Translations under genes and position numbers: made by a program | Shown: one piece after another, positions 24,382 through 61,088 of the stretch | Position numbering within the stretch: position 1 is the first letter of the stretch | How the letters are laid out: the number at the start of each line of letters is the position of its first letter | DNA from: Schmidtea polychroa | Lineage: Eukaryota | Length of the DNA stretch: 64,000 bases | NCBI GenBank assembly: GCA_044892525.1 | Contig: CM097887.1 | Coordinates: 70,742,001-70,806,000 of the forward strand | Direction of reading: 5' to 3' | Notes under the pieces: generated by a model | What the model was told of the DNA's origin: nothing | What the model saw: the letters and a program-made list of their open reading frames with translations, nothing else | Database searches by the model: none

Positions 24382-27300
24382 TGTTGGGCTGAGTCGGAAA
24401 TTTAATCGTTGAAAAATAAGAAAGTAGGGAAGTAGAACATTAAGAAAAATAATAATAAAATAAATAAAATCAGAAATAAAATAGAATAAGATATAAGGAA
24501 GATAATAATTAAGACATAAGAATTAAAACAAAAAATAAAATTAAGAAAAGATTAAAATAGAACAAGTTGACAAATAAATAAAGAGGAATTCAAGAAATAA
24601 TAAGGAAATTAAGGAAATAAATAGAAAAACATATTAAAAATAAAGAAAATAAGGAAAAAACAACCTAAAAACAAGAAAATTATATTAAATTAATAGAAAT
24701 AAGCGGTACTCAACTCTGATTGGTCCGCACGAATAAGAATTTGATATATATACAACTACCAAAAACATTAAATTTACTGTTAACCCCGAGCATTTCATAG
24801 GTAAGAAAAATGTTTACTGTTTTTACTGTTAACCCCGAGCATTTCATAGACATCTACAACTCACGGAGACTTATTTCAAGGATCAGCAATACAAGTAGAG
24901 CAACAGTTAATTCGAAAAACTTCACAGCAATTCGAACTCAGTCACAGCAATCGACATTCGACGAACTATCATCAGACTAATTTGGAACGACTAACGTTAA
25001 TTTTCCGATTCAGCCTAATTCCATAGTAAGGGATTTTTATTTATGATATTGTTTTTCGAAGTTAATAGTAAATATGTATATTTAATGAGCAATTAAACTT
25101 TTAAATTTAACCAGACTCTCTTTTCATTTGATCCTGAATAACGATTTTGATAAAGTAAATAATTTAAATGTTTAAAAGTATTTATTGGTAACAGGTGAAC
25201 TCTTACATAATTTTTATGGATATTTATTTTGAAGTGATAGTTTTATGATTTCTAATATTAACGAGAAACGTGGCGTTGAGATACTCCATGTCATGGTGTG
25301 AGGTGCCTTCGGGAGCTCAGCCGGTGGACATGGAGTATTTCAATCACGCAGCTAGATTGGGCCGAAATGTGAAGGCTTCTTCACGGGTCCAATTGCTGAA
25401 GGACTTAAAATCTGTCAGAGTACCGAAATATAGACCGAAAGGAAACCTTCTGAAATTTTCGAAAATAGGATATGTGCTTCACAGCGACTGAGGGAGTTCT
25501 CATATTAACTCTGTATTGTCCAGAGTCGTCTTACAAGACATTCATGCCACTTCTGTCTATAAATCCGAACTTACCATGTGGGGGAAAATACCATTAAACA
25601 TCCATCGCTGGTTTTCTAACATATCGAGAAGTTGAAATTGCATTCGGTAGATTTTTGAAAAAGTAACTCTAATTTAGGTCATCTCTTTCAGATGCGACAT
25701 CCAAATCCTAGCATATGATGAGGAATTTACAATAAGGGAAAAATAAAACATAAAACCACAATAATACTGTATTCAATCACATATATTAACAAAATCTGGT
25801 AATACCCATCGAATAATGTTCATGCTGTTGCGTCGAAATATCCACTACTGAAATATGCTTCATAGAGTCTAGTTGGCTGGTTCGTAGAGATCTCCCATCG
25901 TTCAAAAACATCCAATATTGAGGAAATTACGAGTCGTAGTAAATAAATCCAACATCATAAGCTCAGATGGGAATCGACACGCGATGTAACATTTGCAGTT
26001 CGCTCAGTACGGTTGATAGTTACAGCTAGAATTTCCATCGAACAGGCACCCATACATACAGACATACTGCTAACATAACTATGAGTAGCGTCATCCGGTC
26101 AGAAATATGCATGAGAAACAGCAGAATCATTCCGAATGCCTCTCACCGCAGGGAATGCCGCCATGTGTCACCCTCTCTAGGATTCTTAGTGTGTGAGTAG
26201 TAATCAGTGGTCATATTAGATAATGCTGACATGAGATGTGACTTCCAGATGACTGACTCTTAAATTTCACTACTGATAAAGGTCATTCGTACCACTAAAA
26301 AGATAAGCCAAAATAACCAGTAACCGACTACTAAGATAAGAGACTCTCTAAAGTGCACTCATTAAAGATAATTTTGCTTAAATTAAATATTCTAAATAAA
26401 AATCGAAATTGTTGAAGGGGTATTTTAATTAATAACCGAAAATTCAAACCAAACTTTATAACTAAACCATAGGAAGTTTCACCTAAGTGTTGTAGAGGTT
26501 TATCGTAATTCTGATTAGATGTTACAAATAATAGTAGTAGCCTTTGAGCCAAATGTAAATTAACTAAAGCATCCACAGGAATTTTTGGGTTATAAAATAG
26601 CTAGTAATATTGTATTTAAATTTCTCATATTCCATGTAAACTACGTATCGCAATAGAAAACTAAATCCGATAACAAATTATTATGTAATTACAATGTTTT
26701 TACGATGCCATATTTCTACGACGATATCACCGTATGGTATGGATAAGGGGTGATCATAAAATAGTGACGTATAGTTTATACGAAGTTACGAGTTGTTACT
26801 TATTCCGCTACTTGAGGTAAGGGTGCAAGTTTTTACTAGTTGCATTTGGTCCAAAAACCTTATTTTGCATTAGAATAACAACAAATAATCAGCGAAATTT
26901 AAACGAAGTGTAGTATAGGGTATTTGTAATGAAATAGGTTTATTCACTCCGGCATGAACAAATCCGTAAATTGCCTTTATGTGCGATAGATAGAAATCCA
27001 ACTCGAACGCGATAGACGAAAATTAAAATTTTTACAAATAATTTGCATTCGTCAGGGAAGCAATCAGGGCGTTGAGGAATAATTTTTGTAAAGGATACGT
27101 AAAATATTAGTAATCAAGGGTGAAGGGAGGGATCCTGTTTCATCGACTCGTCTTGTTTTCTTCCAGCACTAAGTATCCAATAGCGAATAAACCGTATATC
27201 TGATCCGAAATTTTTGGATATAGTCATCATAGTTTTCTTCTTTAGCCATCCATATGTTATCAAACCACAAATCAGCTCTACGTCCCTGCTTCTCCTGCTC

Positions 27301-28540
27301 AGATAAAAATGCAGTGATTAAAGATCTTCAAGCCCAGATCGGTCGATATAAACGAAAAATCGACGAACTGGAAGGGACATGGTTTAGTCCCGCTCGGATG
27401 AAGGAGATCCAAAAGAAGCTCGATCGTAGCGAGCATTGCCGGGACGCGCTAATATCTGAGAGCCGTGCCCAAAGAAGTCTAATCAGAGAACAATCCGAGG
27501 CACTGCATAAGGTTTACGTGCAGGCGGCTACAACCCGAAAAATAGTGCAGATTCCCATCCGAGAGGCCGATGACATCTTTCCGCCTCATCACAACCTTTC
27601 CTCGAATCCATCTCCACCGTTCAAGAGACCGTGCCAAGACTGCGTCGAAAACGAATTGTCCCCCAAGCGACCAGATGTTGTCGTCACGGGTACCAGTAAG
27701 CCCCCCACTGCTAGTCCATCTGTATCAGTCACCCCTCTGCAAGTGGCATCTTCAAGCAAACCCAAGCGCAAACAACTCTCTCGTGCAGAGCGCAAGAAGA
27801 GACAGCGCGAACGCGCCACTACCAAGCCAAACATCCCATCAATAGAGGACTCAACCAACGGTGGCAACTCTCACGTGTCCATCGACCTAACAACGGGACC
27901 CTCAGCACGAATCATATCAGCCGCTGGCGTAACGTGGGAAGAGAACGCTTCCGAGTTTTTTAACCTCGACGAATTATTCGCCGACGCTGAATGGGAGAAA
28001 CAATAGAACCCCAGTGGCGGTCAGGACGAAGAACAAGGATCCGATCTATGTTGATTATGATGTTTTCTCTTCTTTCGACAAACATTAGTAAAGTGTACAG
28101 CTGAATCCCTGTGTCATAACGTTGAAATTAATAAATCTTGTTGTCTTACACGTTTTCGTTCATGAATAATTAGACTTTAATTAAGTGGGTTGAGTAGAGA
28201 ACCCGCCAGATCTAGTGAGAAATTCCCAATTTGTATTCAGCGAATCCTGATAAGTGGTTGTGTAAGGAAAAGGACGTAAGCCCTTCTAACGGCAGTCGTG
28301 AATGGGAAGTCGAGGCCTCAGCAAGGAGTAGTTTTAAGGCAGAAGCTCACCTGCTTGCTGGCGTCTCGCCTGCATAGTGCAGTACCAACGTGAAGTGATT
28401 CACGGGCACTATGTTGGAAGAAAGTTATGTGGGGTTTCACTCCAGGTTGACAAATCGGTGGCACCTTTTATTCGAGATGGACAATCAACCCTTAGACCCG
28501 TCAACATGGTAGAGTGGTCAGCCGAGGTGCAACCCCAACA
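24382..28540 (+). repeat. 5' LTR (4,159 bp)
   Basis: Starts TGTTGGG and ends CCCAACA (7-bp terminal inverted repeat). Matches 50767-54925 wherever compared. Confidence 0.96.
27254..28006 (+). CDS. LTR-encoded 250-aa protein of unknown function (5' copy)
   Basis: Intact ORF, identical in both LTRs. CxxC plus coiled coil, basic tract KPKRKQLSRAERKKRQRER, and acidic-aromatic C-terminus. A homolog exists at 19678. Confidence 0.75.
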   Translation: MLSNHKSALRPCFSCSDKNAVIKDLQAQIGRYKRKIDELEGTWFSPARMKEIQKKLDRSEHCRDALISESRAQRSLIREQSEALHKVYVQAATTRKIVQIPIREADDIFPPHHNLSSNPSPPFKRPCQDCVENELSPKRPDVVVTGTSKPPTASPSVSVTPLQVASSSKPKRKQLSRAERKKRQRERATTKPNIPSIEDSTNGGNSHVSIDLTTGPSARIISAAGVTWEENASEFFNLDELFADAEWEKQ

Positions 28541-28547
28541 TGATTTT

Positions 28548-28565
28548 TGGGGGCTCAGCCGGGAT
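28548..28565 (+). promoter_or_regulatory. Primer binding site, tRNA-Pro type
   Basis: TGGGGGCTCAGCCGGGAT matches the MLV tRNA-Pro PBS TGGGGGCTCGTCCGGGAT at 16/18 positions. It lies 7 nt after the LTR end. Confidence 0.85.
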
Positions 28566-28882
28566 CTACAATCGATCGAAATTTCTATTAACGAATGCGA
28601 AATTCACCGGGATTTTCATACAAAATTAAAGGGATTTATCACATCGATTTTCTGTTTTCAACCGACCATTGCTTGACGAATGCAAATTGACTATTGATTA
28701 TTAAATTATATTAGGAACTAAGTAGAGAAAATCAAAATGTAGATAATAGGAAAATTGAGGATATATATAAATAAAGGAGATAAAGTAGTCAAATTAAATA
28801 ATTAACAATGGTTAAAGAAACCAATTAACGAATTAACTATTAATTTACTACATATTATTAAAACATTACTTTTCCAACAGCT

Positions 28883-29368
28883 ATGACAGAATTCGCGAAC
28901 CAAATGCAACAACTGCTCAAGTTTATCGATATAGAAAACGACTCCCTAACAACACTGACGCATAAAAGAGAAAAAATCAACGCGATATTACTACAAGCAA
29001 TCGGACAAACACCAGTCGTACCTAATCATATGATATTAGCCACAGGCCTAAGTCGCCCAGATGGAAAAATAAACCCCGAAACCGTATATCAGTGGTATCA
29101 AGAGAGATTGAACCACCCAACATTAAATCTAGATTATCAGCGTCTAAAAGACTCACTAAATACAATACCAGATGCAATCGAACAAAAAATACAGGAAAAA
29201 GTTAACCAATTACGAACTTGTATAGCCTGCAAACTCCGTCCTATTCGCGTATTATTCTTGCCGTGTGGACACCTCAGTCACTGTGAAGAGTGTGTAAAAG
29301 ACCTAAAAAGATGCACGATGTGCAAATATGAAATAAAAGAGACCCATATGGTCTATTATGGCGAATGA
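28883..29368 (+). CDS. 161-aa protein with C-terminal C3HC4 RING of IAP/MDM2 type (putative E3 ligase)
   Basis: CIACKLRPIRVLFLPCGHLSHCEECVKDLKRCTMC. Acceptor TTTTCCAACAG lies 2 nt before the ATG. A decayed homolog lies at 21286-22445. Confidence 0.88.
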   Translation: MTEFANQMQQLLKFIDIENDSLTTLTHKREKINAILLQAIGQTPVVPNHMILATGLSRPDGKINPETVYQWYQERLNHPTLNLDYQRLKDSLNTIPDAIEQKIQEKVNQLRTCIACKLRPIRVLFLPCGHLSHCEECVKDLKRCTMCKYEIKETHMVYYGE

Positions 29369-29959
29369 AACGGCCGGCGATGTAACAGCAAGTATACGAT
29401 GTTTGAACAAGAATGCATGAAATTGTTGAGGTAACACGTACTGTTAATGATTCAATCTTTATGTTTATGATAAATAAATTCGTCTTTAAAAAGTTTTGAT
29501 GATTAGGACTAATAAAATTTGCATGACGAATGAATATTTGCGTGTTTGTTTTGTTTTATTTTTTTTTCGGAATCAAATGAAGAGAGGGTTGAATAACGTG
29601 GAATTAGTCCCAATATAGACTGCAGGGGTACAAACCGAGCCACCTTCGGGCGGTACGTCTTATTGTAAGAACCCGTTGGGAGGGGATAACTGATCAACCC
29701 AAGTAAGAAGCGTAGGGCGGGGTACCATCGCATATGATGAGAAGTTTTTGCGACATGACTGATCACCATGCAAATGTAGAAATGGATCATCGCGATCGTC
29801 GTGCGTTTTGAGCAAGGGGGGAAAGGGGAAACACTCCCAAGCGGTAAAGATTAAGTCGACAAATTAAAAGTAGATAGAGAAAATGGTAAACTAGAGTAAA
29901 AGAAGAAAAGAGAAATAGAAGCATGCAGAGCGAGGAATATTAAAGCCGAGCTGTCGAAT

Positions 29960-30610
29960 AATCCAGCCGGTCAAGGAGGAAGATTGAGCTGTTGAATAGT
30001 GCCAGCCAGTCGTAAGGTCGAGTTGTGAAAAGTCCAACCGATCAGGAAGGAGGAAGATTGAGCTGTTGAATAGTGCCAGCCAGTCGTAAGGTCGAGTTGT
30101 GAAAAAGTCCAACCGATCAGGAAGGAGGAAGATTGAGCTGTTGAATAGTGCCAGCCAGTCGTAAGGTCGAGTTGTGAAAAGTCCAACCGATCAGGAAGGA
30201 GGAAGATTGAGCTGTTGAATAGTGCCAGCCAGTCGTAAGGTCGAGTTGTGAAAAGTCCAACCGATCAGGAAGGAGGAAGATTGAGCTGTTGAATAGTGCC
30301 AGCCAGTCGTAAGGTCGAGTTGTGAAAAAGTCCAACCGATCAGGAAGGAGGAAGATCGAGCTGTTGAATAGTGCCAGCCAGTCGTAAGGTCGAGTTGTGA
30401 AAAGTCCAACCGATCAGGAAGGAGGAAGACTGAGCTGTTGAATAGTGCCAGCCAGTCGTAAGGTCGAGTTCTGAAAAGTCCAACCGATCAGGAAGGAGGA
30501 AGATTGAGCTGTTGAATAGTGCCAGCCAGTCGTAAGATTGAGTTGTTGAATAGTCCAACCGATCAGAAGGAAGAAGATTGAGCTGTTGAATAGTGCCAGC
30601 CAGTCGTAAA
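29960..30610. repeat. Tandem array of about 9 copies of a 74-75 bp unit in the 5' leader
   Basis: Anchor AGTCCAACCGATCAG at 30031, 30106, 30180, 30254, 30329, 30403, 30477 and 30552, plus a degenerate first copy. Confidence 0.95.
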
Positions 30611-31865
30611 GGCCTAGAAAAGCGAGAGATAGCAGTTAAGCTACAATGAGATAATATTTAAATTACTAGTGATATGGAATATTAAAGCTAGCTAGAACAA
30701 ATTGAATGTAATTTTGAAAATTCGAGTTTAGAGAGGAAATAAACGAGCTCGTGGAAAAGAAAATAGGATTATAATGAAAAAGGAAAGGGAAGAAGGAAAC
30801 GAATTAAAGAGATAATAGAAAATAAAGAATAGATGAAACGATGATAATGAGTAAAGAGGAAAGTAACTAACTAACTAAAGGGATCCCAGTGAAGTAGAGA
30901 AACTCTACGGAATATTTTTTTTGGTTAAACCGGGAAAATGCATTTTATTGGTTCCAGAGTAGAACCGAGCGTAATAATAGTGAATATGAAAAGTAAAATA
31001 GCGATAACAGCGCAAAAGGATTAGGAAAATGAAAGGGGGGTAATAAGCAGAGACCGACAACGACCTATTTTTACTATAATTGATAACGAATAGATAATTA
31101 TTACGACTTTATAGATAATTGTTACTACCCCATATAGATAATTTAAAATCGACGGAAAATACGGGCTGATGGGATATTATAACCCGCAGAAAGGATTTCA
31201 CAAAAGATAGGGGAAGCACAAACAGAAACCTAAAAGGTGTCTGTTTTTGAACGTTGTAGAAAGAATGATGAAGTCGTGTAAGCAAATGCAACACGAGATC
31301 ATTTTTTCATTTTAGATATCAAGCCAATCCAGCCAACCAAGACAATCCAGAACCTGCACAAAAGGAATTCGAAGAAATCGACAATCAACCAAGGATAAAT
31401 CCATTCAGAACCCGCACCGAGAGACACAGCAACCGGAAGACTCCCGAACGGAAGAAGTATTAGCAGCCATCTGCCAAGGATTAGAAACACAATCAGAACC
31501 GAACGCGACCAATTCAATAGCCGCTAATTACCAAGAAGCGTAAGAAAGGAATCACGGATAAACCCAATCTTAGATCTTCAAGTAAGCCAGGAGACGTATT
31601 ATTTTCAGGAGACGAATTACAACAACTCAAAAGAGGACGATCCATTAAACATCAAAGAGGAATATCACAAGGATCCAGAAGAACCAATCAAGTACCCATA
31701 TTTGACCAAGAAAATCTCGGATATACCCCTAGTCGATCTCGAAGTAGAGAAAGTCTGTCCGATATCACTAATAGTTTAGCAACGTCAACCGAAGAATTAT
31801 CAGCCCAAAGTTTAGTCACATCGTTAGACAATTTAAAAGAAACAGACGAACCTAGAACACCAATC

Positions 31866-36893: not shown

Positions 36894-38475
36894 AAAAAGG
36901 TACTCGCATATTACTGTGGACAATATTCGTATTCGACTCTTATACTACCCGGTCTGGATAAAGAAATCGTATCAATACAACGAGAGGATTGTAAAGAGCT
37001 ATTTAGAACCGGAGCGCTAAAAATGCATAACGGAGTGACAATTCACGGACAAACTGGAATGATTAAAACCGAAAGTGTTTACGTATCCGGAAAAGTAAAA
37101 TCATCAGATGGGTCATGTAACGGGGGGACGTATACGATCCGAGGCGAGGTAATATCGGGAGTTGTAGTGATCGAGTCTTACACGGTCGAATTAAAAGAAT
37201 ACGAAGCGCAATTTGACGCAAATAATTACCAAATGAAGACCAACCCAGCGTGTAAAGCTACAGAAAACGTATGCAGGACAGGAGTATCAACTATAATCTA
37301 TGAAGCTAATACCCAAAAATGCCGACTCCAACTGTTAAAAAGTGCTTTGTTCAATGAAGTAAAAGGAGAAATATATGAGAACGAGAACGACGAGGATGGA
37401 AACGACAGAGTGAGAATGCGAAATGGAAAACCAATGCCACCATCTCCCAGAGAAAAGAGACTTTCAACGCAGAAGACACCAACAGCATTAATCACAGACG
37501 ATCCAGATCTAGGTATGAGATTTATCAAAGAGAAAGAAACCACCAAATGTGACAGTATAGTATATAAAACCAATTACGCAGGTATCTACATGTCGAGACA
37601 AATAATCGATAGAGCAGTGGGAAAGATAGCAACGGAGGACGTAAAACTATACTTATATGCAAATAATAAAATGGATTTTCTATTTCATCGTGGACAAACG
37701 ACCTTGCAAAAAGTATATTACGATCTGATACAAAACGATTGTTCATTGAATAAAGAAATATTGAAAACAAAGCTAGCTATTGCGATAACGCACCCCGATA
37801 ACACGATGCCATCACTCCCATTACCAGATGGACACTTTGGTAGAATGGTAGGAGAAGTGATGTACACATACCAGTGTACCAAGACGTATGCACGAATGCC
37901 AGAAAAATCCATACTACCCGAAAAGAGATGTGCAAATGAATTAGAAATTCGTTATAAAGGACAAAATCGATTCGTCCAACCAGTCACTAGAATTATGAAT
38001 CCAGTGGGTTTCTACCCAAATCTCTTTAACTGTTCTAATGCATACGGACCTTTGTATGAAAGACCCGATGGGAAATGGATGATGTTACCGGGAAAAACCA
38101 TATCCGAGGAACCCAAGAAATTTGGATTAATAGAACTCGCCACAGAGCTGGATTTCAAACCTATAGACGTGTCAAACGGTGGTATGTATTCCCCAGAAGA
38201 TCTAGAAACAGCACGACTTAACGTACTCTTCCCAGCCAGACGAGAATCCATTTTGTCTAATATGGTCACAATAACTGGGGGCACAAACTATCAATCAGGC
38301 CCGAATTACGAGCTGCTATTATCGCCAGACCATTTTCAACAAGCTACGTCAAACATGATGAAAGCAATGTGGGGAAGATTCTTAGTTTTTGGACAAATGA
38401 TGGCCGGGATATTAGGGATCATACTCATAATTCAGATAGTCAGAGTAATACTAACACAAATGTTAGCTTGTTTCG
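36717..38475 (+). other. Chuvirus-like viral envelope glycoprotein domain (ectodomain plus TM), spanning the in-frame TAA
   Basis: FTIYDC after a hydrophobic segment, then ECVV..YYCG..SYS, DGSCNGGTY, CDSIVYKTN, KLYLYANNKMDFL, GEVMYTYQC, CANELEIRY...FVQPVTRI, GGMYSPEDL...LFP and WGRFLVFG followed by a TM helix. This is the Cys and motif order recalled for Chuviridae glycoproteins. Confidence 0.8.
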
Positions 38476-41400: not shown

Positions 41401-44400
41401 AATATCACGATGGGAGATTGGGAGGACATATGTCATCGAAAAAGACGTTAGCAAGAATGAAACAGAAATATTTTTGGCCTACGTTAACGGAAGATGTAAC
41501 CGAATGGGTAAAAAATTGTCTAACTTGTGCAACCAGGAAGAATACGGGATCGAAATGGAAAGCACCTTTAACGCCAATGCCAGTACCAATAGAACCAATG
41601 ACAATGATATCCATGGACGTAGTTGGTCCACTACCAGAGTCAGATAAAGGAAACGTTTACATTCTAGTGATCACAGACTTTCTTACGAAATTCCCAGAAG
41701 CATTCGCGATGCCAGACCAAAAAGCTAAAACAATCGCAAAAATTTTGGTAGAAGAGATATGTTGCCGATATGGAACACCAAAACAAATCTTAACCGATCA
41801 GGGAACAAATTTTATGAGTGAGATAATGAGCGAAGTAACAAATTACTTCAAAATAGCAAAACTAAGAACATCTCCATACCACCCTCAAACCAATGGGATG
41901 ACGGAAAGATTTAATGGAACACTTATACAAATGTTATCAAACTACGTTGACCGTCACCAACGAGATTGGGACGAATATATAAACCTATGTCTTATGGCGT
42001 ACAGAATGTCGATTCACGCATCAACGAAAATGAGCCCATTCAAATTAATGTACGGAAGAGAATGTAATATGCCAATGGACCTGGAATACCAACCACCGAT
42101 ATCGCAGTATATGGAGATCGATGATTATGTTACGAAATTCAAGGAAAGAATGCAAGAAATTTGGGAAACTGCGGGATTAAATATCAAGTTCTACCAGGAA
42201 AGTTATAAAGATTTACACGATCGAAAGAAAAACGTGAAGCAACATACGTTCCAAACAGGTGATTGGGTAATGATAGAAACCCCGGAATTAATTCCAGGAA
42301 CCACAAAAAAGTTACAACGCAACGGAAAAGGACCATATGAGATCTTATTCGTAGGCGAAACTAATGTAAGAGTGAAATTGGTAAATAACCCCTTTACCAG
42401 ACCAATATACGTAAACGTGGCACGATGCAAATCAATTCCAAAAACAGCCACTAGTCAACCAGAAGGCCGTACATTAACCACACGTTCGCAAACCTACCGA
42501 ATGAACATGATGCAACAACTCGCAGAACCGATCACTGGACGATTAGGTATCCAACCATCAGAAGCGGAAAAGATTGTAAAGGAGGTAAAAATTAAAATAC
42601 CTGGATGGGCAAAAGATCGATTAGATTTCGAAATATTAGGAGGATTATTGACGATGATCGAGAACTATGCAAATAGAGAAAGGACACACCCATTATTGCG
42701 AGTAGTCAAAAGCCAATGGCCAATATTATTTACAATAACAGATCATTACGGAGACACACCATTACACAAACTCATGAAAGTAGGTAACAACGAGCAAATA
42801 CTAGAAACAATAGAAGCATTTCACGACTGCAAGCGATCAACAGAACAAACAAACAACCAAGGTTACACCCCATTAATGATAGCCGCAAACAGAGGCAAAA
42901 CAAAAGACATTATAACCGCATTACTCGATACCGGATCGAAAATAACTACACAAGACCACGAGCGGAAAAACGCTCTACATCATGCTATCAGAGGGAGAAG
43001 TACCGAGGCGTTCACGTCATTGATGGAACTACTATCATATGAGGACAATCGGGAAGTCGGAAACATGTATGATGGATTGCTAACAGCGATCAAAGAAAAA
43101 CTGACGACAATTACCGGAATATTAATTACATGGAGAAATCCAATTCGAAACGATTATATGATCAACGTAAACGAAGCGTTCACGAGAGGAGAGAACACGC
43201 TGATGAGAGAAGCTATGAAAGGACATCAGTTATTCGAAATCCCGAATCAATTACTAGAACGAGGGATAAAATTCACAAATCATAAAGACGAACAGTTAGC
43301 AAAAAAGCGAATCGACACATTCGAAAAATCCCTATTCCAATTTACTAACCAAGTACGAAATAAATATTGGGAAACGGTAAGTGTGTTATATATGATGGAC
43401 ACAATGAATAACATCCGCGAGAATTACCTGGATATTATCCAAATACTTACAGCAGAGGAACGAATCAATAATCCAAACGGAAAGAAAATGAAAATAAAGT
43501 ATGAGAAATCCAGGGAATCAAAGTCAACAACGAACCAAACGGTCACAAACAACGTCATCGAAACCAAATCAATGAGTATAGATCAAGAGGCAATAATACG
43601 CAAAGCAAAAGAAGTGTTCTTTGAGGAAATGCTAGAGCTGCCAGACGAAATAATATTGTCCAAAATAATAAAAGCCGTACACACATACGCAAGAGATCAA
43701 ACCACGGATTTAGATATCGGGAAAATCAAAACCTTCTTGCCTCGAGCATTTACGATGGTAACGAAGGATTCCAGAACACCCCTACAACAAGCAATACTAG
43801 CGGCGAAAGAAAATAGAGCAATAACGATCGTGAGAATCCTTGGAGAGATGGGCGAGGAAACCAACACGAAAAATGAACAAGGTGAAACCGCCATGATGTA
43901 TGCAGCTATAACGAAAATACACCCAAAAACACTCCACATCCTACATCAATCAGGATCGAAACTAGACGAAAAGTCCAATGAAGGAAATTCCACCTTGGAC
44001 TGGGCAACCATACAGCCAAACTTAGAAATGATCAGATTTATTTGCAAAAATGCGACAAAAGAAGAAGTTGAAAATATGTGCAAAAACACATCTCAGTTTC
44101 AATGGAATACGGTACGGAAAAATCTAGAAGCAATGAAATTATTATTAACCTGGAGAGTACCACAAAATAATAAATATGCGATAAATGTAAACGAATTCTA
44201 CGAAAACGGAGAAAATGCGATGGTAAAGAATACCCTAACTAAGGGGGGGACGCCTAAAATAATTTTAATAGTATTAAATAGAGAAGACCTAAAATTCACG
44301 CAAAATCAGAACGAGCAACAACGAATTGGGAAACATCGTCGTATGCAATTGAGAGAGTTAGTTAAAGAATGGAATAGAAAGAGACATGCTGCAACGGGTA

Positions 44401-45719
44401 GAAAAGAGTTTGAATTCGAAGCAAAATTAGCAAGAAACAGAGTGCTAACAGCATATCGCAGATTATTGAACGATATAAATGTCGAGGACGACATTTTAAA
44501 CGACAGCGGGGGAGATAAACACGATGACAATAACGGAAAAGGCCGAAAGGAGGATAAAGAGAAAAGAGAACAGGAGGAGGGTAAACCGGAAAACAAGGAT
44601 TCGGATACGAAAAGAGAGGGAAACAGCCCGGGAACTAAGACCAAAGAGGAGGAAAAATCGAATAATGGAAAACAGAGGGTATGCCTACCTTTCACTAACA
44701 AAGAAATAGAGACAAATATGATATTAATGATAATTATGCTTACCATGATAGAGTTAGTAACAGCTCATGGAGGGACGAGGACGATAAAAGAAACCAAAGA
44801 AGCGGAGAATCAAGATAGCAAAGAGGACGAACTAAAACAAGAAAAGAAAAAGCAAGCACAAGAGCAGCAGTGGGATTTAAAGGAAGAATGGGACTTAAAG
44901 GAAAGGTGCATACTAGGAAGATGCATGTCTAGAGCGTATCAGAAACTAGTACTGATAAATGAGGACACAGAACCAATAACAGAAGTAAGAATACAAGAAG
45001 CATACCGAAACCGAGACGGGAAAAGAATAACGAACGTTAAAGGAAAAGAGGTACACCTAGGAAAAGGTGGCGAAGTAGTAATAACGCAGCTCCAACCAAG
45101 AAAAGAGCACAAAGTCTGTATTTCAAGATTGGGACCGGGTGAGAGATGCCATCAATATGTGACGCAGCAGCAGCCCCCGAAGGAATATACGGTTTGTATC
45201 TGGAGAAACGAATCAAAAAGAGAATGCCGACGATACCCGGGGAAAAGAGGAAAGAAAAGGAAAAACCACGACGAAAAGGACGAAGGAGGAAAGCACAAGA
45301 AAACCGGCGAGGAAGCTCAGGACAACTATGTTTCGGAGGAAGAGATGGAAAAAATACAAAAGATGGCAAAGGAGGGTATGAACGAGGAAATAGCAAGAAT
45401 ACGGGAAATGATGAAAGGAAATGGCAAAAGAGGGAACGAGAAAAGTACAGAAGCAATATCAACATTAACAAACCAGGAAAAACCAGAGAGTATAAGCGTG
45501 AAGCAGATGATGTGGATCAGTGGGATAATAATAACAGGGGCATTCCTAATCATAACGGGGGGAACAATAAAAATAATTAAGGATAAACGACATCGCGGAG
45601 AACTAGAGATGACTCGAATCAGAAATTTCCAACATCGAGTGAAACGACCAAGTGATATCAAACAAGAACAGTGGGTGGAGGCCTGGAACGCTCAGCGCCC
45701 TCCAAACTCACGTATATAG
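36894..45719 (+). CDS. pol: Polyprotein part 2: rest of glycoprotein, protease, RT, RNase H, integrase, ankyrin repeats and membrane-anchored C-terminal unit
   Basis: Open frame from 36894 (the ORF track starts at ATG 37023). Motifs MIDTGANVS, YIDDLLI, LATDASG, H..RLGGH...C..C, MDVVGP / TDQG / ERFN and GPYEI. Confidence 0.95.
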   Translation, partial: KKVLAYYCGQYSYSTLILPGLDKEIVSIQREDCKELFRTGALKMHNGVTIHGQTGMIKTESVYVSGKVKSSDGSCNGGTYTIRGEVISGVVVIESYTVELKEYEAQFDANNYQMKTNPACKATENVCRTGVSTIIYEANTQKCRLQLLKSALFNEVKGEIYENENDEDGNDRVRMRNGKPMPPSPREKRLSTQKTPTALITDDPDLGMRFIKEKETTKCDSIVYKTNYAGIYMSRQIIDRAVGKIATEDVKLYLYANNKMDFLFHRGQTTLQKVYYDLIQNDCSLNKEILKTKLAIAITHPDNTMPSLPLPDGHFGRMVGEVMYTYQCTKTYARMPEKSILPEKRCANELEIRYKGQNRFVQPVTRIMNPVGFYPNLFNCSNAYGPLYERPDGKWMMLPGKTISEEPKKFGLIELATELDFKPIDVSNGGMYSPEDLETARLNVLFPARRESILSNMVTITGGTNYQSGPNYELLLSPDHFQQATSNMMKAMWGRFLVFGQMMAGILGIILIIQIVRVILTQMLACFDIYKREKKVNWKMIVGFLPFLAKTMVLHGHSKDIHRIKRLIKILTKIKGTDEEVGRRFRKVMYDEATRRQLKKNKPKFLDRFRSQSSNSDSDDDDNGNDKCLYPNRNPNEKPMETAPYWEKEKTNTWIANGSYIPPDIVGPQTALTMTQNMYPQLPSQPGMHYMPTRRTKSVDQADDVRTIAAMSLPGGPAVTVMIQINGQETNAMIDTGANVSAIAINQIPSKHWKDIESTTIHIIACSKETVDVVGRWWTTLRYQDNEIETYLAVIPKLSVPCIIGTDLMPELLKEVVIDLTTMCLKDKTGRICKMNAVIRCPEKIIVPAKSQMICQIKVDTGMEGEVIFEPSKSFEKRRELPLAREIITINQEGVIPLNITNFEEEDKIIYENEKLGRLTPMMDIELPKVTNEMIKDDELWTIDSMLLTNDEKKKLHRLLVEYKDIFAISDLDLGTCDVTLHAIPLIDETPIALRPYKLAEMQKEIAEAEVQKMLDAKVIEPSCSPWQFPVVMVKKKDGTQRFCIDYRKLNAVTKRDTYPLPDINEMLLMLQGAAYFTSLDLKSGYWQVKVKDEDKEKTAFTLGRDLYQFRKMPFGLTNAPASFQRCMNFVTHGIKQCMVYIDDLLIYSATFEQHLEDIRNVFIRLRQWKLKLKPSKCDWAKEKVTFLGHIVSAKGKEPDPRNIEKIKTCPAPKTVTQVQEFLGLCGYYRKFIKNYAGIAKPIQELVKKDISFLWGKEQQEAFETLRDKLIEAPILVHPDFKKPFLLATDASGYAAGAILGQLDDEGKERVIGYYSRTFKKHEKNYSVTEREALAIIQAIKHFRYLLWGHEICITTDHQPLVWLGQHKEASSRLMRWAMQLQEYSPFIKFKAGRANANADCMSRFIFPDLVDSEMQRICLIVAEDLDFCQLRKDQQEDAELKQIIDYIKTGQTDVYAKDQKLKEHMDKHRHRYIIEKDWLLIMDGEKRLMCIPENRRKELLTQYHDGRLGGHMSSKKTLARMKQKYFWPTLTEDVTEWVKNCLTCATRKNTGSKWKAPLTPMPVPIEPMTMISMDVVGPLPESDKGNVYILVITDFLTKFPEAFAMPDQKAKTIAKILVEEICCRYGTPKQILTDQGTNFMSEIMSEVTNYFKIAKLRTSPYHPQTNGMTERFNGTLIQMLSNYVDRHQRDWDEYINLCLMAYRMSIHASTKMSPFKLMYGRECNMPMDLEYQPPISQYMEIDDYVTKFKERMQEIWETAGLNIKFYQESYKDLHDRKKNVKQHTFQTGDWVMIETPELIPGTTKKLQRNGKGPYEILFVGETNVRVKLVNNPFTRPIYVNVARCKSIPKTATSQPEGRTLTTRSQTYRMNMMQQLAEPITGRLGIQPSEAEKIVKEVKIKIPGWAKDRLDFEILGGLLTMIENYANRERTHPLLRVVKSQWPILFTITDHYGDTPLHKLMKVGNNEQILETIEAFHDCKRSTEQTNNQGYTPLMIAANRGKTKDIITALLDTGSKITTQDHERKNALHHAIRGRSTEAFTSLMELLSYEDNREVGNMYDGLLTAIKEKLTTITGILITWRNPIRNDYMINVNEAFTRGENTLMREAMKGHQLFEIPNQLLERGIKFTNHKDEQLAKKRIDTFEKSLFQFTNQVRNKYWETVSVLYMMDTMNNIRENYLDIIQILTAEERINNPNGKKMKIKYEKSRESKSTTNQTVTNNVIETKSMSIDQEAIIRKAKEVFFEEMLELPDEIILSKIIKAVHTYARDQTTDLDIGKIKTFLPRAFTMVTKDSRTPLQQAILAAKENRAITIVRILGEMGEETNTKNEQGETAMMYAAITKIHPKTLHILHQSGSKLDEKSNEGNSTLDWATIQPNLEMIRFICKNATKEEVENMCKNTSQFQWNTVRKNLEAMKLLLTWRVPQNNKYAINVNEFYENGENAMVKNTLTKGGTPKIILIVLNREDLKFTQNQNEQQRIGKHRRMQLRELVKEWNRKRHAATGRKEFEFEAKLARNRVLTAYRRLLNDINVEDDILNDSGGDKHDDNNGKGRKEDKEKREQEEGKPENKDSDTKREGNSPGTKTKEEEKSNNGKQRVCLPFTNKEIETNMILMIIMLTMIELVTAHGGTRTIKETKEAENQDSKEDELKQEKKKQAQEQQWDLKEEWDLKERCILGRCMSRAYQKLVLINEDTEPITEVRIQEAYRNRDGKRITNVKGKEVHLGKGGEVVITQLQPRKEHKVCISRLGPGERCHQYVTQQQPPKEYTVCIWRNESKRECRRYPGKRGKKRKNHDEKDEGGKHKKTGEEAQDNYVSEEEMEKIQKMAKEGMNEEIARIREMMKGNGKRGNEKSTEAISTLTNQEKPESISVKQMMWISGIIITGAFLIITGGTIKIIKDKRHRGELEMTRIRNFQHRVKRPSDIKQEQWVEAWNAQRPPNSRI
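39027..42500 (+). other. pol: Pol core: aspartic protease (DTG at 39096), RT (YIDD near 40313), RNase H, integrase
   Basis: Catalytic residues appear intact. Order and motifs (FCIDYRKLN, FTSLDLKSGYWQV, MPFGLTNAPASFQR) are typical of Ty3/Gypsy. Confidence 0.96.
42745..44260 (+). other. Two ankyrin-repeat modules fused downstream of integrase
   Basis: YGDTPLHKL, QGYTPLMIAA, ERKNALHHAI; then SRTPLQQAI, QGETAMMYAA, EGNSTLDWA. Each block is followed by a similar L.TWR....Y.INVNE...GEN segment. Confidence 0.9.
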
Positions 45720-45879
45720 AAAGGAATATGACTGTATATAATTGTAAAAAGTAAGTATATCTTATGTATATAACAGTATTATATCTTTATATAAGCGCGG
45801 TATCAATATTATACAATAACGGGAATCATAAAATAAAATTAAATTTACATAAGAGTTGAAAAGAGTATATAAATTAGGA

Positions 45880-46239
45880 ATGGATCAAGGAAATAACGAA
45901 ATGAACCACAATACAGTAACTGAAGAATTATGGAAGCAACAATGTGCCGTATTAGCACAATTAGTGTCCAATTTGCAAGAACAAGGACTGACGATGCACA
46001 GAAACCTGATCGAGAGTATGAACAGAGGATTTAGTTATTTGAAGATAATTGAAGACCAGAGGTTAAAAATCGAACAAATGCAAAGAGAGATAGAGAGGAT
46101 AACCCAATATAGCCGTCGACAGGAAATTGAAATAGACAGAATGATGGAGGAAGCAGAACAGACAGAAATAGAAGACTGGTCGGAATGGCTAATGAATAGA
46201 GAGGAGAGCGGACACGAAGCCGACTCTTCCGAACCCTAA
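45880..46239 (+). CDS. Accessory coiled-coil protein (~119 aa), unknown function
   Basis: Intact ORF with TTAG 2 nt before the ATG and a heptad-like, Q/E/R-rich sequence. Confidence 0.6.
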   Translation: MDQGNNEMNHNTVTEELWKQQCAVLAQLVSNLQEQGLTMHRNLIESMNRGFSYLKIIEDQRLKIEQMQREIERITQYSRRQEIEIDRMMEEAEQTEIEDWSEWLMNREESGHEADSSEP

Positions 46240-46324
46240 ACCAAACCTAGCTCAAAATGTAAATAATTGTAAATAAAATATCGAACCTGTATCGATAAGA
46301 ACTATTTGTACATATAATTATAGA

Positions 46325-47713
46325 ATGGATAAACGACAAAGAGAAGAGTTCAGAGAGATTGTCGAGCAAGTCCGAAAATCTACAACGATCAGAATACACA
46401 AACATGTTATGTGCGGAATATGTGAAAAGTTGTTAAAGGAACCTCACCAAACGCAATGTGGATGCAGAGTATGTAAAGAATGTATCAGTGAAGCAATAAA
46501 GAATAGACCACAAAGGTGCCCGGTGTGTAAAGAGACACTAATATCGAGTTTAGAAGACACTAACGAGGATAAAGCCGCAGTGAAAGACATGTTAAACACC
46601 AACCTGGGATGCAAAAATGCCCCATGCGAATGGAAAGGAGTAATATGGAAGGTAGTACAACATATGGGAGAATGTATGTACAGAATTGGCCAGTGTGAAA
46701 GGTGCCATAAAACCATTCGAGCAAGCGAAGAAAAAGAGCATCAAAGGCAGTGTGAGGAGAGATTGGAAAGATGTGAACACTGTGGAGAAATAGATACGTG
46801 GATAAATCTCACCCTCAAACATCACAATGTCCAAGAGGAGAGAGTATGTGCGGAGTTCAGTGGGGAATGCCCAAACGGATGTAACCAAGGGGAAACAATG
46901 AAGGTGGCACAGCATCTAAGGGAATGCGAAAAGAAAAGAATGACATGTGTACTAGGTAGATGGGGTTGTCAGAAATTACTACACCGAGGTGAGTTACCAC
47001 ATCATTTAGTAGAAAATGCTTCAACTCACGCAGAAATGTGGTCGACTGCGTTACAAGAAAGCGAAGAGAAAGTAAAACAAATGGAGATAGAGATAACATC
47101 GTTGAAAGTGTTAGTCAAAGAACTACTAGAAGAAAGGAAAGCGTTCGAAGAAGCCCGAGCAAACATAAAGATGCAAATAAACCGAACAGAAATTAGTAAT
47201 AATCAGGCCAAGGAGCTACATCAGAAAATACGGGAAATAAATCTAAATGAGATAACCCCAACAGCACCCTACATATGGAAAATAACGGGAGTAAAAGAAA
47301 GAATACGAAAAGCAAAAACCGGAGAAGAGACAAGAATAACAAGTCCTACATTCCATTCTTGGAAAAATGGGTACAAAATGAAAATGAAGATATATCCCAA
47401 CGGGGACGGAACCGGATTAGATACGCACTTTTCGATTTTCTTTCTGTTATGTAAAGGAGAATACGACGAAATATTAGAATGGCCGTTCCAGGCAAAAATC
47501 GATATTACTCTGATGAGCAACCAAAGTATACATGAGCAAAGCTTCAAAACAACGGGGAATCAAATAGCTTACCAGAGGCCCCTCAACGAAGAAGGATCAG
47601 CAACAGGAGCACCTACGTTCATCTCACAACAAAGAGTAGAAGATATGGCGAGAAATGATACCATATATATCAAGATGACCGTGAGGAAAGAGGAGAAGGG
47701 TAGAACGGAATAA
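46325..47713 (+). CDS. Intronless TRAF-family protein (RING, TRAF zinc fingers, coiled coil, MATH/TRAF-C)
   Basis: CGICEKLLKEPHQTQCGCRVCKEC...CPVC; CKNAPCEWKG, CPNGC and C.LGRWGC fingers; YIWKI...SPTF...GYKMKMKIYPNGDG.G..THFSIFF.LCKGEYD..LEWPF...QRP...G.PTFI. Confidence 0.95.
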   Translation: MDKRQREEFREIVEQVRKSTTIRIHKHVMCGICEKLLKEPHQTQCGCRVCKECISEAIKNRPQRCPVCKETLISSLEDTNEDKAAVKDMLNTNLGCKNAPCEWKGVIWKVVQHMGECMYRIGQCERCHKTIRASEEKEHQRQCEERLERCEHCGEIDTWINLTLKHHNVQEERVCAEFSGECPNGCNQGETMKVAQHLRECEKKRMTCVLGRWGCQKLLHRGELPHHLVENASTHAEMWSTALQESEEKVKQMEIEITSLKVLVKELLEERKAFEEARANIKMQINRTEISNNQAKELHQKIREINLNEITPTAPYIWKITGVKERIRKAKTGEETRITSPTFHSWKNGYKMKMKIYPNGDGTGLDTHFSIFFLLCKGEYDEILEWPFQAKIDITLMSNQSIHEQSFKTTGNQIAYQRPLNEEGSATGAPTFISQQRVEDMARNDTIYIKMTVRKEEKGRTE

Positions 47714-47906
47714 CCAATCGAATAATGTTGTATATAATAATCTGTATATATCGGTGTATATAACTAATAAAATATTATATAATAATAGTATGAAAACCCT
47801 AAATACGAAAACCCAAAAATGATGCGAAAATTTCCCAAGAAACAGTAAATAATGAATAAATTCCTTTTTCATAATAAAAAGATTAATCGATGTCTATGAT
47901 TTAGAG

Positions 47907-48962
47907 ATGACACAAGAGAAAATAACCGAAACTGCGATAGACCCAACCAATGTCAACAAGACACAAATTCCCCGAGAACATAACAAAAAATGGAACAAAG
48001 TAATGTTCCAACTAACTAATCTCACCCGAAATCACATCGAAGAAACTAGAGAAGATGAGAATAGTCAATACCAATGGTTAATACACAACTTAAGAGCGGA
48101 AGCAGAAGCATGCAAAAGAGCATCAAAATGGGCGTCACTAGAAAATACCCGCCAAGAAGCACACAGCCACTACTTAAAGCAGCTAGTGCAGGAAGCGAGA
48201 AAGAGACTTACCGATGAGAACACCAAGCGCGAAGCGGAAAAGCAAATAGAAGACAGGAAAATGATGCACTTAGTGGCAGAAGCGAGAAAATGGAAAAGAC
48301 AAAACAGAGACATGAAAAAAGAGATGAAAGAATTGCCCAGGAGACTCGGATATGAAAGCGAACAAGGTAAATGGGAGGAGAATTTAATAATAAAGGAAGA
48401 ATTGAAAAGGTTGAGAAAGGTCGCCGCCCGAAGCCAAACCTGGCAAACAAAGGCTATGGAGTTTGAGCGACATTTGGCAATGAAGTGCGACATAAGAGAG
48501 CACGAGAATGCCGCAATGGAAGAGATGATAACCCAACAAGCGGGACGGGTTGTGGAATTAGTAAATCAGGTAGAAGAGATGAAAAGAGACCTTAATGGAT
48601 TACAAGGATCGCTGGAACAAAGAAACATGGTCCTAGCGGGAAAAAACAGAAAATTAGAAAACGAAAGGAAAATGTACACCGAAAATATTAAAAACTTAGA
48701 AATAGAAATTGAAAAATGGAAGGGCGACGAGAAAATCAAGGCCCTAGACAAACAGATAGAGGCGAAAGATGAAGAGACTAGGTATCTCACCTATCTGCTC
48801 GACGAGGAATTGAATATCACTCGAGCTCTAAGAGACGAAGTTAGTGAATTGAGAGCTCAAATTCCCCAATATTACCTACCATACGACCCTATTGCGATAC
48901 AGTTACATTCCGCGGTCGATAGTGATGAAGGTTATGTAGGCCAGGAGGAAACCTTCGTATAA
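47907..48962 (+). CDS. Accessory coiled-coil protein (351 aa), unknown function
   Basis: Long intact E/K/R-rich heptad ORF in the same orientation, with TTAG just before the ATG. Confidence 0.75.
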   Translation: MTQEKITETAIDPTNVNKTQIPREHNKKWNKVMFQLTNLTRNHIEETREDENSQYQWLIHNLRAEAEACKRASKWASLENTRQEAHSHYLKQLVQEARKRLTDENTKREAEKQIEDRKMMHLVAEARKWKRQNRDMKKEMKELPRRLGYESEQGKWEENLIIKEELKRLRKVAARSQTWQTKAMEFERHLAMKCDIREHENAAMEEMITQQAGRVVELVNQVEEMKRDLNGLQGSLEQRNMVLAGKNRKLENERKMYTENIKNLEIEIEKWKGDEKIKALDKQIEAKDEETRYLTYLLDEELNITRALRDEVSELRAQIPQYYLPYDPIAIQLHSAVDSDEGYVGQEETFV

Positions 48963-49130
48963 GGGTGGATGAAAAGATGAAAAACTAAAAACCGGGACGT
49001 ATATCCCAAACAAAAAAATTAAAGTATTGTAAAAGTATTCAAGGGACTGTAACCCAAACTATTAAATTTTATATCAATGTATACGTATAAGTCGCACTAT
49101 AGCGCACCATTAACTGTACATATTATAGAT

Positions 49131-49829
49131 ATGAAAATCGAGGAAATGATAGAAATTATGAGCGACGTAGAAGAGGGAGAGATTGAGGCAGAAACAACAG
49201 AAACACAAACGCTAAAGGCCGAGTTACGGGAAGAGAAATACGAAAACGGGAGATTAATAAACAAATACCTGGAGGACCGGAAAATGATAAAGGTGTTAAA
49301 GAAAGAGTGCGAAGCGTTGGGGGAAATAAAAAGAGAAACGGAAGAGGAAAATGAATGGCTACACGAACAAAGGAAGCGAGGGAAAAACTGGGAAAAGATA
49401 GCGGAAGAGCTATGGAAAGAGAGGGCAAGCTTCAAAGCAAAGGAGGTAATCCAAGACTACTGGAAAACTGAGGCGAAGGAGCGCCAAACAGCTATAAATA
49501 AATTAAAACGACAACTAGAAGAAAACCAACGGGAAAGTAAAGAAATGAAGAAGTGGGTCCGCAAATATAGAGAAATAGAAAGAAAACATCAACAACAAAA
49601 TTACCTGCAAGAAAACGAACAAGATCTCCTACAAATCGAGCTAAAAAGAAACCTTGAAAAGAAAAGGGAAGAAATTAGACGCTTGGAAAAAGAAATTAGA
49701 CATCTAAAGAGAGAAGCCCGTGAAAAAGACCGACAATTGGAAATGCTGCCCGAGTTAAGACACAGGGTAATTAAAGCAGAGTCCACCTTGATGAGAATCG
49801 GTGAAAATAATCCAAATCAGAACCATTAA
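49131..49829 (+). CDS. Accessory coiled-coil protein (~232 aa), unknown function
   Basis: Intact E/K/R-rich ORF. The likely start is the ATG at 49131 after ATTATAG (the ORF track starts at 49077). Confidence 0.7.
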   Translation: MKIEEMIEIMSDVEEGEIEAETTETQTLKAELREEKYENGRLINKYLEDRKMIKVLKKECEALGEIKRETEEENEWLHEQRKRGKNWEKIAEELWKERASFKAKEVIQDYWKTEAKERQTAINKLKRQLEENQRESKEMKKWVRKYREIERKHQQQNYLQENEQDLLQIELKRNLEKKREEIRRLEKEIRHLKREAREKDRQLEMLPELRHRVIKAESTLMRIGENNPNQNH

Positions 49830-49884
49830 ATTAAGGGTCATTAAAACCAATTGTAAATAAACATAATGAATGTATAATAGTATC

Positions 49885-50538
49885 ATGCGAGGCGAGATGA
49901 TGATAACAATGATGGTATTGATGATTCTGATGGAGAACAAACAATTAAACGCCCAACCGAAAATCGTACGAGATTACCGCAATCAAAATCAAGAACCTAA
50001 ACAAGAATCCGGCAAATGCACATACCCTATGACCGTAAAAACCCATATCATCCAAACCATTCAATCAACCCGATCCCACATCAACAACATCCAAACAATG
50101 TGTAAAAAGAACCCCATTTGTAAAATGATAAACAAACAAATCTTCGAACAAAGCCAACAGATCGACCAGTTGGAACAACAAATGCAACAAGAGGATTTTG
50201 AAAATCTTGTAGAAAAGCCAAAAACACCTCCCGAGATCAATGACACCCATTATCTCATATATGTGGTGATCGCAGAGACCCTCCTCCTATGTCTACCAAT
50301 ATTCATGAAAATTTACGAAATTCGAAATAGATGTAGAGTCTCGACATCAATAAGAGTAACCTCGAACCAAAATCCTCAAGAAGTGCCCCTGACAAATCTT
50401 AACCCATCCCCATTCCGACCTCGAACCCCGAGTAATCAACCAATCCAGCCGAAATCTAATAGTCAGACCTATCTCAACATTAATACCCAAACCAACCAAC
50501 AGCCGCCAGCAGAAGCATCAATGGTTAACAGTTCATAA
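49885..50538 (+). CDS. Orphan type I membrane protein
   Basis: Signal-like MMITMMVLMILM, a small helical ectodomain with 3 Cys, a TM helix YLIYVVIAETLLLCLPIFM and a P/N/Q-rich tail. Confidence 0.7.
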   Translation: MRGEMMITMMVLMILMENKQLNAQPKIVRDYRNQNQEPKQESGKCTYPMTVKTHIIQTIQSTRSHINNIQTMCKKNPICKMINKQIFEQSQQIDQLEQQMQQEDFENLVEKPKTPPEINDTHYLIYVVIAETLLLCLPIFMKIYEIRNRCRVSTSIRVTSNQNPQEVPLTNLNPSPFRPRTPSNQPIQPKSNSQTYLNINTQTNQQPPAEASMVNSS

Positions 50539-50766
50539 ACTCTAACTCAAACATTTGTGTTATTATATGTGGAAACTTTTATTGTATGTACAAACTATCA
50601 CCTTAAGTGATACTTGCTTGATCTTGCTTTGACCTTGATCTTACAATAAAATTTTTATCATTGTTGTATAATTTTTCGTGTTCGTGTTATATTTTTTTTT
50701 TCGAATGAATGAATTAAGTTAATTATGCAATTGCGGGACGCAATTTTGATGGGTCCCCGAGTGATT

Positions 50767-60961: not shown

Positions 60962-61088
60962 TTAAGCCTTTTGCTGCAAATAATGTATTTAATGAAAGAA
61001 TTTTCGACTATAAGATAGTCCTTGACAAGGACTATCTTATAGTCGAAAATTCTTTCATTAAATACATTATTTGCAGCAAAAGGCTTAA
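60962..61088. repeat. Perfect palindrome, 63-bp arms with a 1-nt centre
   Basis: TTAAGCCTTTTGCTGC...TAGTCCTTG A CAAGGACTA...GCAGCAAAAGGCTTAA. A related, centrally shortened copy lies near 13700-13790. Confidence 0.85.

Follow-up and report, generated by a model that had tools for sequence, protein, structure and literature searches.

A window of 64,000 nucleotides (nt) of Schmidtea polychroa DNA (GenBank assembly GCA_044892525.1, contig CM097887.1, positions 70,742,001 to 70,806,000, forward strand) was analysed, and all coordinates below count from its first letter. It carries an element of 30,544 nt (24382 to 54925) bounded by long terminal repeats (LTRs) of 4159 nt, which were identical in a self-BLAST comparison (100% over 4160 nt). 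Judged by its sequence, this is a Burro-like giant LTR retrotransposon of the gypsy type, belonging to a family that is already known. Like Burro, it exceeds 30 kb and has LTRs of several kilobases, and Pfam searches revealed the order Gag with CCHC knuckles, protease, reverse transcriptase, RNase H and integrase, together with ankyrin and MATH/TRAF cargo. A fusion glycoprotein of the Monjiviricetes type (PF24664, E 2e-50) lies in frame between gag and the protease (RVP). The element departs from Burro1 proper in that Pfam gave no BIR match within it and in that MATH is confined to a separate open reading frame (ORF) at 46325. An in-frame stop codon (36891 to 36893) splits the polyprotein in this copy, the frame being that of gag on either side; this position is open in four related elements of the genome (E1, F1, F2 and B1). 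We consider it probable that all genes of the element, gag included, are expressed by alternative cis-splicing of an ATG-free leader from the LTR, and that the first intron of this leader is spliced from the replicated RNA and rebuilt. The element is organized as follows:

24382 to 28540, + strand: 5′ LTR, 4159 nt, with TG...CA ends and an AAAT target-site duplication
27243 to 28006, + strand: LTR-encoded ORF (250 residues) with a pyrimidine-rich predicted acceptor (TAG 27243 to 27245)
28878 to 29368, + strand: RING-finger ORF (161 residues) with its predicted acceptor (CAG 28878 to 28880)
31302 to 31865, + strand: pyrimidine-rich predicted gag acceptor (AG 31314 to 31315), followed by a 550-nt ATG-free run to the gag ATG
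31866 to 45719, + strand: polyprotein with, by Pfam, Gag (CCHC), viral fusion glycoprotein, protease, reverse transcriptase, RNase H, integrase and ankyrin
45875 to 46239, + strand: ORF A1 (119 residues) with an acceptor-like TAG (AAG in four relatives)
46321 to 47713, + strand: TRAF-like ORF (RING, MATH; 462 residues) with an acceptor-like TAG
47902 to 48962, + strand: ORF A3 (351 residues) with an acceptor-like TAG and YTRAY 19 nt upstream
49126 to 49829, + strand: ORF A4, ATG 49131, with an acceptor-like TAG (CAG in the relative F3) and YTRAY 16 nt upstream
49878 to 50538, + strand: ORF A5, ATG 49885, with an acceptor-like TAG; by eye, a hydrophobic N-terminus and one internal hydrophobic stretch
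50767 to 54925, + strand: 3′ LTR, in which the leader, intron 1 and the LTR ORF (53639 to 54391) recur

For the product of the LTR ORF, Pfam gave no match and a protein-family look-up in Atlas likewise returned no family. Upstream of this ORF, the LTR contains the features from which the leader is predicted:

24716 to 24752, + strand: inferred promoter, with a CCAAT box in reverse orientation (CTGATTGG) and a TATA-like box at 24745
24776 to 24800, + strand: predicted exon 1 of 25 nt, which begins 31 nt past the TATA-like box and whose final YAG abuts donor D1
24801 to 24849, + strand: predicted intron 1, 49 nt, GTAAG...TAG, its last 25 nt (24825 to 24849) being an exact copy of exon 1
24850 to 25025, + strand: predicted exon 2, 176 nt, ATG-free
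25026 to 25031, + strand: donor D2 (GTAAGG), the likely major donor for all downstream acceptors

The GTAAG at 24801, which the initial annotation had put forward as a guess at an LTR donor, is present at that position. Of 50 LTR-upstream stretches examined, 36 contained a CCAAT/TATA promoter, and in 29 of these 36 a GTAAG or GTAAA donor ended an ATG-poor leader. In these 29 LTRs, in which both leader ends could be placed, the predicted leaders contained 18 ATGs in 5751 nt, as against 230 in equal stretches past the second donor. The sequence is that expected of a non-coding leader with a major donor, as in complex retroviruses.

Seven natural copies from the same genome were counted in the comparisons: the window element, E1, E2, F1, F2, F3 and B1. 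The LTR ORFs of E1 and E2 are 64-80% and those of F1 to F3 37-38% identical to that of the window element. B1 represents a distant Burro1-like family (gag 36%, TRAF 29% identity), which has a BIR-RING ORF; with MATH within the polyprotein and a BIR-containing ORF it is closer to Burro1 than the window element is. The E and F elements share ancestry, so that roughly independent tests are limited to two, the window element and B1. Not counted were F4 and F5 (env-bearing gypsy families with short LTRs and no comparable array), the broken or interrupted loci E4, E5, E6, G1 and F6, and the near-duplicates E3, B2, C1 and C2. In all seven elements, B1 included, gag is preceded by an ATG-free leader of 499-657 nt, which was matched by 0-4 of 2000 shuffles. 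The gag leader also contains a possible intron of 69 nt, from GTAAG 31540 to TTTTCAG 31608 (31540 to 31617), which has a further GTAAG and a 9-mer repeat at its end; it was conserved in six of six elements. Between 31316 and 31865 the gag frame has the fewest stop codons of the three (0-4 versus 6-15) in each of the seven elements, for which a relic coding sequence and a non-AUG extension of Gag are candidate explanations.

The exon-1 copy at the end of intron 1 recurs in dozens of divergent LTRs. Two promoter patterns gave 579 and 571 genome matches, of which the leading 30 per pattern, all from a single contig, were examined. A GTA donor was present 50-60 nt after the TATA box in 48 of these 60 promoters, and in 41 of the 48 the end of the intron copied exon 1 with at most 3 mismatches in 24 nt (32 exactly); three others differed by 4-5, with small indels, and four had no copy where examined. 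The copied introns were 44-52 nt long. The 27 distinct exon-1 units differed pairwise by 12.1 of 24 positions on average. The stretch shared by exon 1 and its copy began 27-34 nt after the TATA box, and at 28-31 nt, the position expected of a transcription start, in 33 of 41 cases. In the window element, a 24-nt spacer separates the donor side of intron 1 from the second exon-1 unit. Tandem duplication is not accepted as the source of the intron, since the repeat covers the exon alone and the donor side is not repeated. The intron end appears to be rewritten repeatedly from the first 25 nt of the transcript. Removal of intron 1 from the 5′ part of the copied RNA is the simplest cause; with RNA unspliced at its 5′ end, the two copies would be unlinked and their borders, at the start site and at GT, unfixed.

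The remaining 12 promoters comprised one with a GTGAG donor and a copy, one rearranged, one interrupted and nine intron-less LTRs, the latter with several different exon-1 units. In one LTR of the window's subfamily (L180) and its partner (L211), exactly the segment corresponding to 24801-24849 is missing. The two LTRs of an element agreed in intron state in 25 of 25 pairs, 24 of which had the intron. Since the intron is absent from both L180 and L211, its loss dates from reverse transcription or earlier. A copied cap would leave a G before the copy, and G preceded the intron-end copy in 13 of 41 cases, compared with 53 of 644 bases (8%) of the intron body. In 12 elements of the window subfamily the bases just before the second copy took six forms, which were identical within each of 11 LTR pairs; these variable bases may be a transfer seam or merely the result of slippage in a T run. 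In several LTRs (L156, L161, L163-L167) GT follows the intron-end copy, giving AG|GT again, possibly a second round of the module or a recursive site. Among L151-L234 of the window subfamily, one promoter and exon 1 occurred with three different exon-2 starts, which suggests recombination at the unit during strand transfer.

These observations would be accounted for by the following course of events. Transcription would start at about 24776, 31 nt past the TATA-like box, and intron 1 (24801 to 24849) would then be removed from the RNA's 5′ end, as the genomic traces strongly suggest. RNA in which the donor at 25026 stays unused would be the full-length RNA; otherwise this donor would be joined to one of eight acceptors, those of the LTR ORF, RING, gag, A1, TRAF, A3, A4 and A5. 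Because the leader is ATG-free, splicing to any of these acceptors would place the AUG of the respective ORF first, and the 3′ acceptors are weak, as the persistence of full-length RNA demands. The mRNAs of the 3′ array would share a poly(A) site near 50645. The replicated RNA would lack intron 1 at its 5′ end and keep it in its 3′ LTR part. Strong-stop DNA made from the spliced 5′ end would finish with exon 1 joined to exon 2 and could pair continuously with the intron-end copy and exon 2 at the 3′ end of the RNA. After such pairing the intron, exon 1 and U3 would be copied and the intron regained; pairing with the true exon 1 instead would give intron-less LTRs. That this is an LTR retroelement with a spliced replicated RNA, whose intron is rebuilt in every cycle by a first strand transfer onto the intron-end copy of exon 1, rewriting that copy, is favoured on balance.

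The acceptors predicted downstream coincide with a regularity reported in the initial annotation, according to which each of the seven separately encoded accessory ORFs has a YAG 1-8 nt before its ATG. All seven YAG-ATG pairs lie at the positions claimed, with gaps of 8, 2, 2, 1, 2, 2 and 4 nt, and so do both pairs in a decayed relative nearby. The rule holds for seven of seven ORFs when a second ATG is allowed and for only five of seven when the first ATG alone is counted, since the ATGs at 49131 and 49885 are second in-frame ATGs and the first ones (49077 and 49870) have no YAG. ATG 49077 is missing from four of six relatives (E1, E3, F2 and F3b), and in F1, too, the ORF begins at the later position; this favours 49131 as the start of A4. 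When the 40 nt upstream were shuffled and either the first or the second ATG was accepted, 1.85 matches were expected against the seven observed (P = 3.4e-5); the background in the window element was a YAG 0-8 nt upstream of 163 of 663 ATGs. Across 50 starts of the seven elements, a YAG lay within 9 nt of the first ATG in 36 cases and of the first or second ATG in 44, and some AG within 9 nt was present at 49 (five AAG; one start had CAG 10 nt away). B1 alone showed YAG at seven of eight starts (P 6e-4), including an IAP-like ORF that is absent from the window element. The AG was kept while flanking bases varied, as in the change from TAG to CAG at A4 of F3, and homologues of the LTR ORF had a YAG within 9 nt of an ATG in 14 of 20 cases by eye, the misses being mostly decayed copies. 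An acceptor-like AG thus stands ahead of each accessory AUG, as in complex retroviruses. Among the seven sites, a pyrimidine tract was found only at the LTR ORF and RING (0.83 and 0.75 of 12 nt). The sites of the LTR ORF, RING and gag are most naturally read as cis-splicing acceptors, and the five 3′ sites are weaker candidates.

RNA contigs bear on the 3′ part of the element. Contigs of four runs, three presumed to be RNA and one of unclassified kind, were aligned at 85% to 44300-50760, a region without the LTR or the 5′ part; the presumed-RNA runs gave 280, 69 and 2 records, contigs only, mostly from relatives of 85-95% identity. Contigs of run X1 covered 29 of 30 bins of this region. One RNA contig begins 3 letters before ATG 47907, which lends weak support to the acceptor there; use of the five 3′ acceptors is inferred. 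Genomic searches for processed copies, which say nothing about RNA, found none with donor D2 followed by a non-G base and none for the gag-leader donor. The TRAF start lacking the A of its AG gave no genomic copy and that lacking the G gave two, both of them ordinary subfamily copies with a 2-nt gap.

Several observations weigh against the splicing scheme. Among 15 of 30 contig joints displayed, from contigs mostly of diverged relatives, no GT-AG joint fell at a predicted site, and neither a leader-like nor a spliced leader (SL)-like loose end was seen among 20 of 464 displayed. Contigs of X1 run unspliced over the A4 and A5 acceptors and over a GTAAGT at 45751; as full-length transcripts are expected to be unspliced, such contigs neither show nor refute splicing. 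The five 3′ sites are AT-rich, with pyrimidine fractions of 0.33-0.58 of 12 nt and no tract; the YTRAY branch motif was found at only two of seven window sites, both among these five; the acceptor-like AG of A1 reads AAG in four of seven elements; and eight of the 44 YAG matches depend on a second ATG. As to intron 1, the 60 promoters include pairs of LTRs from single elements, and as related sequences the copies do not count as independent. G is a minority among the bases before the copy (A 14, G 13, C 7, T 7). Slippage of the reverse transcriptase between two repeats also gives exact intron loss, so that loss alone is no proof of splicing. In the B1 family an intron with a duplicated exon is absent and an ATG precedes the first GTAAG; such an intron is therefore not required by all Burro-like elements.

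The 3′ array and its flanks contain the following further features:

45751 to 45756, + strand: donor-like GTAAGT 3′ of the pol stop codon, in six of six elements displayed and not seen in B1
50645 to 50705, + strand: AATAAA with a U-rich tract downstream, before the 3′ LTR
45733, 45765, 46258, 46268, 46307, 47729, 47743, 47755, 49115 and 49852, + strand: ten TGTAHATA motifs

AATAAA or ATTAAA with a U-rich tract followed the last ORF in seven of seven elements displayed and was not seen in B1; the AATAAA at 50645 is likely to be the shared 3′ end of the array mRNAs. The initial annotation had left open whether the array is processed by alternative splicing, as in complex retroviruses, or as an operon-like unit by SL trans-splicing. 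In the latter case, poly(A) cleavage and trans-splicing at the AGs would release the five 3′ ORFs, and cis-splicing would serve only the leader, the LTR ORF, RING and gag. The spacers of 55-193 nt are short and resemble flatworm intercistronic distances, whose median is 99 nt in Schistosoma mansoni (PMC12582326, in excerpt) and which peak near 100 nt in Macrostomum (PMC8629364, in excerpt). SL trans-splicing occurs in S. polychroa itself (PMC10899757, in excerpt), and flatworm cis- and trans-splicing use one acceptor motif, as described in the available part of PMC12582326. A block containing AATAAA, TGTAAATAAA, is kept in the A1-TRAF spacer of six of six elements and in B1. Against this, AATAAA is not enriched in the spacers compared with shuffles (window 6 versus 3.5, P 0.13; F2, P 0.59; B1, P 0.49), and the internal spacers lack the U-rich tract of the site at 50645. 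Flatworm SLs end in AUG according to the excerpt of PMC12582326, and this AUG would be out of frame at seven of seven window sites and, over all elements, at 31 of the 44 sites with a YAG, which is about chance. A cis leader with donors is, moreover, already present upstream of the array. We found no positive evidence for the SL or operon half of the original proposal and regard such a unit as unlikely; the alternative-splicing half is upheld by the conserved acceptors, the two LTR donors (24801 and 25026), the ATG-free leader exons and the genomic traces of intron-1 splicing.

Small internal promoters in the spacer of each 3′ ORF, with the AGs as by-products or minor sites, appear quite unlikely. 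They would be consistent with RNA contigs that begin near ATG 46325 and 47907, with unspliced contigs spanning two acceptors, and with two conserved blocks: TATATAAG followed by a GC-rich block in the pol-A1 spacer (six of six) and GTATAAG with a GC-rich block in the A3-A4 spacer (seven of seven, one with TATAAG only). However, B1 keeps the AGs and has neither block, the spacers contain no CCAAT/TATA module of the LTR type, and internal promoters would not account for an AG within 9 nt of 49 out of 50 starts. Very unlikely, in our view, is termination-reinitiation or internal entry on unspliced or singly spliced RNA, guided by TGTAHATA and with the YAGs as a translation signal. All ten TGTAHATA motifs of the element fall within the five 3′ spacers (661 nt; shuffle mean 0.19, maximum 3), as do seven of ten in B1 and in F2; the motif lies 14-23 nt past the stop codon in four of five window spacers and five of six B1 spacers, and unspliced contigs exist. 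Yet the AG before the ATG is found also at the LTR ORF, RING and gag, where pyrimidine tracts occur and TGTAHATA does not, and four regions, spacers among them, folded no better than shuffles. The motif matches the Pumilio element, and one guess is that it acts in the 3′ untranslated region, where it would set how stable mRNAs with long 3′ tails are. A general role of UGUA in planarian polyadenylation was discarded, since none was found upstream of planarian poly(A) signals in the part of PMC5068929 that was available.

Further observations concern the ends and the surroundings of the element. It sits inside a transposase-like frame (23881 to 24381, resumed from 54926), hAT-like by eye, for which Pfam gave no match over 23881-24405. 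A putative primer-binding site (28546 to 28563), which we take to resemble a tRNA-Pro site, lies a few nucleotides past the LTR, and its motif recurs in B1 and after a decayed LTR near 20830. At 50720-50766, before the 3′ LTR, there is no purine-rich polypurine tract; this segment contains the inverted repeat AATTGCGGG.CGCAATTTT followed by GGG.CCCC, and this block is conserved in every family, B1 among them. A tandem repeat of 74-75 nt occurs in nine copies (29941 to 30609) between RING and gag. The decayed relative (19678 to 22900) retains an LTR ORF, a primer-binding site and a RING ORF, the latter split by an insertion of about 700 nt near 21500-22160. A near-perfect inverted repeat of 63 nt lies at 60962-61108, with a related copy at 13678-13786. 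In the 781-Mb genome (four large contigs), 92 matches to the TRAF ORF were scored at 94-100% identity from 2028 candidates. Dozens of host-like TRAF/MATH genes are clustered on one chromosome (contig C2, for example at 110-124 Mb), and four identical LTR ORFs recur at 33.2-kb spacing at C1:145063309-145163763, as a tandem array or a segmental duplication.

Retroelements are expected to lose introns that are spliced from the RNA they copy. The LTR layout described here would escape this loss, and traces of both restoration and exact loss are found within one genome. If correct, the scheme would add a step to LTR replication that allows a cap-proximal intron to be kept and at least eight spliced mRNAs to be produced in the manner of a virus, and it would give exact predicted junctions for the expression of apoptosis- and ubiquitin-related cargo by Burro-like elements. 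To our knowledge, planarian expression tools are scarce, and the predicted promoter with its 200-nt leader is a compact candidate expression module for these animals. The IAP of Burro1 has been reported to aid planarian regeneration (cited in PMC13465017, in excerpt). In the literature covered, which mostly excludes subscription journals, we found no account of how Burro RNAs are spliced or of an LTR intron that strand transfer restores, although the family itself has been described.

The element shares with Burro/GYPSM1 of dugesiid planarians, as far as the excerpt of PMC6431247 describes them, a length above 30 kb, LTRs of several kilobases, an env-like fusion glycoprotein between gag and pol, ankyrin repeats, MATH/TRAF and accessory ORFs; it differs from them in that its TRAF is a separate 3′ ORF and the BIR domain is absent. 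That excerpt is silent on accessory-ORF expression and on any LTR intron. Its same-strand ORFs, arranged in tandem at distances of about 100 nt and preceded by acceptor-like YAGs, make the window element resemble flatworm and nematode SL operons (PMC12582326 and PMC8629364, in excerpt), from which it differs in having no enriched poly(A) signal per gene, no SL loose end among the 20 of 464 displayed, and a cis leader. One promoter, a short non-coding leader, a major donor and many weak acceptors near AUGs are features of HIV-1, HTLV-1, foamy viruses and the adenovirus major late unit, and foamy viruses have a spliced gag-side mRNA. The leader-donor-acceptor layout of the window element, as predicted from the DNA, is like that of complex retroviruses and the adenovirus major late unit. 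Unlike complex retroviruses, the element is of the Ty3/gypsy type, and whereas their packaged RNA is unspliced, its replicated RNA is apparently spliced at intron 1, which is then regained. In the errantiviruses gypsy, ZAM and Idefix of Drosophila, env is expressed from a spliced subgenomic mRNA. The spliced mRNAs predicted here for extra ORFs of a gypsy element are comparable, but the errantiviruses splice one ORF, whereas up to eight acceptors are predicted in the window element, in which env lies inside the polyprotein.

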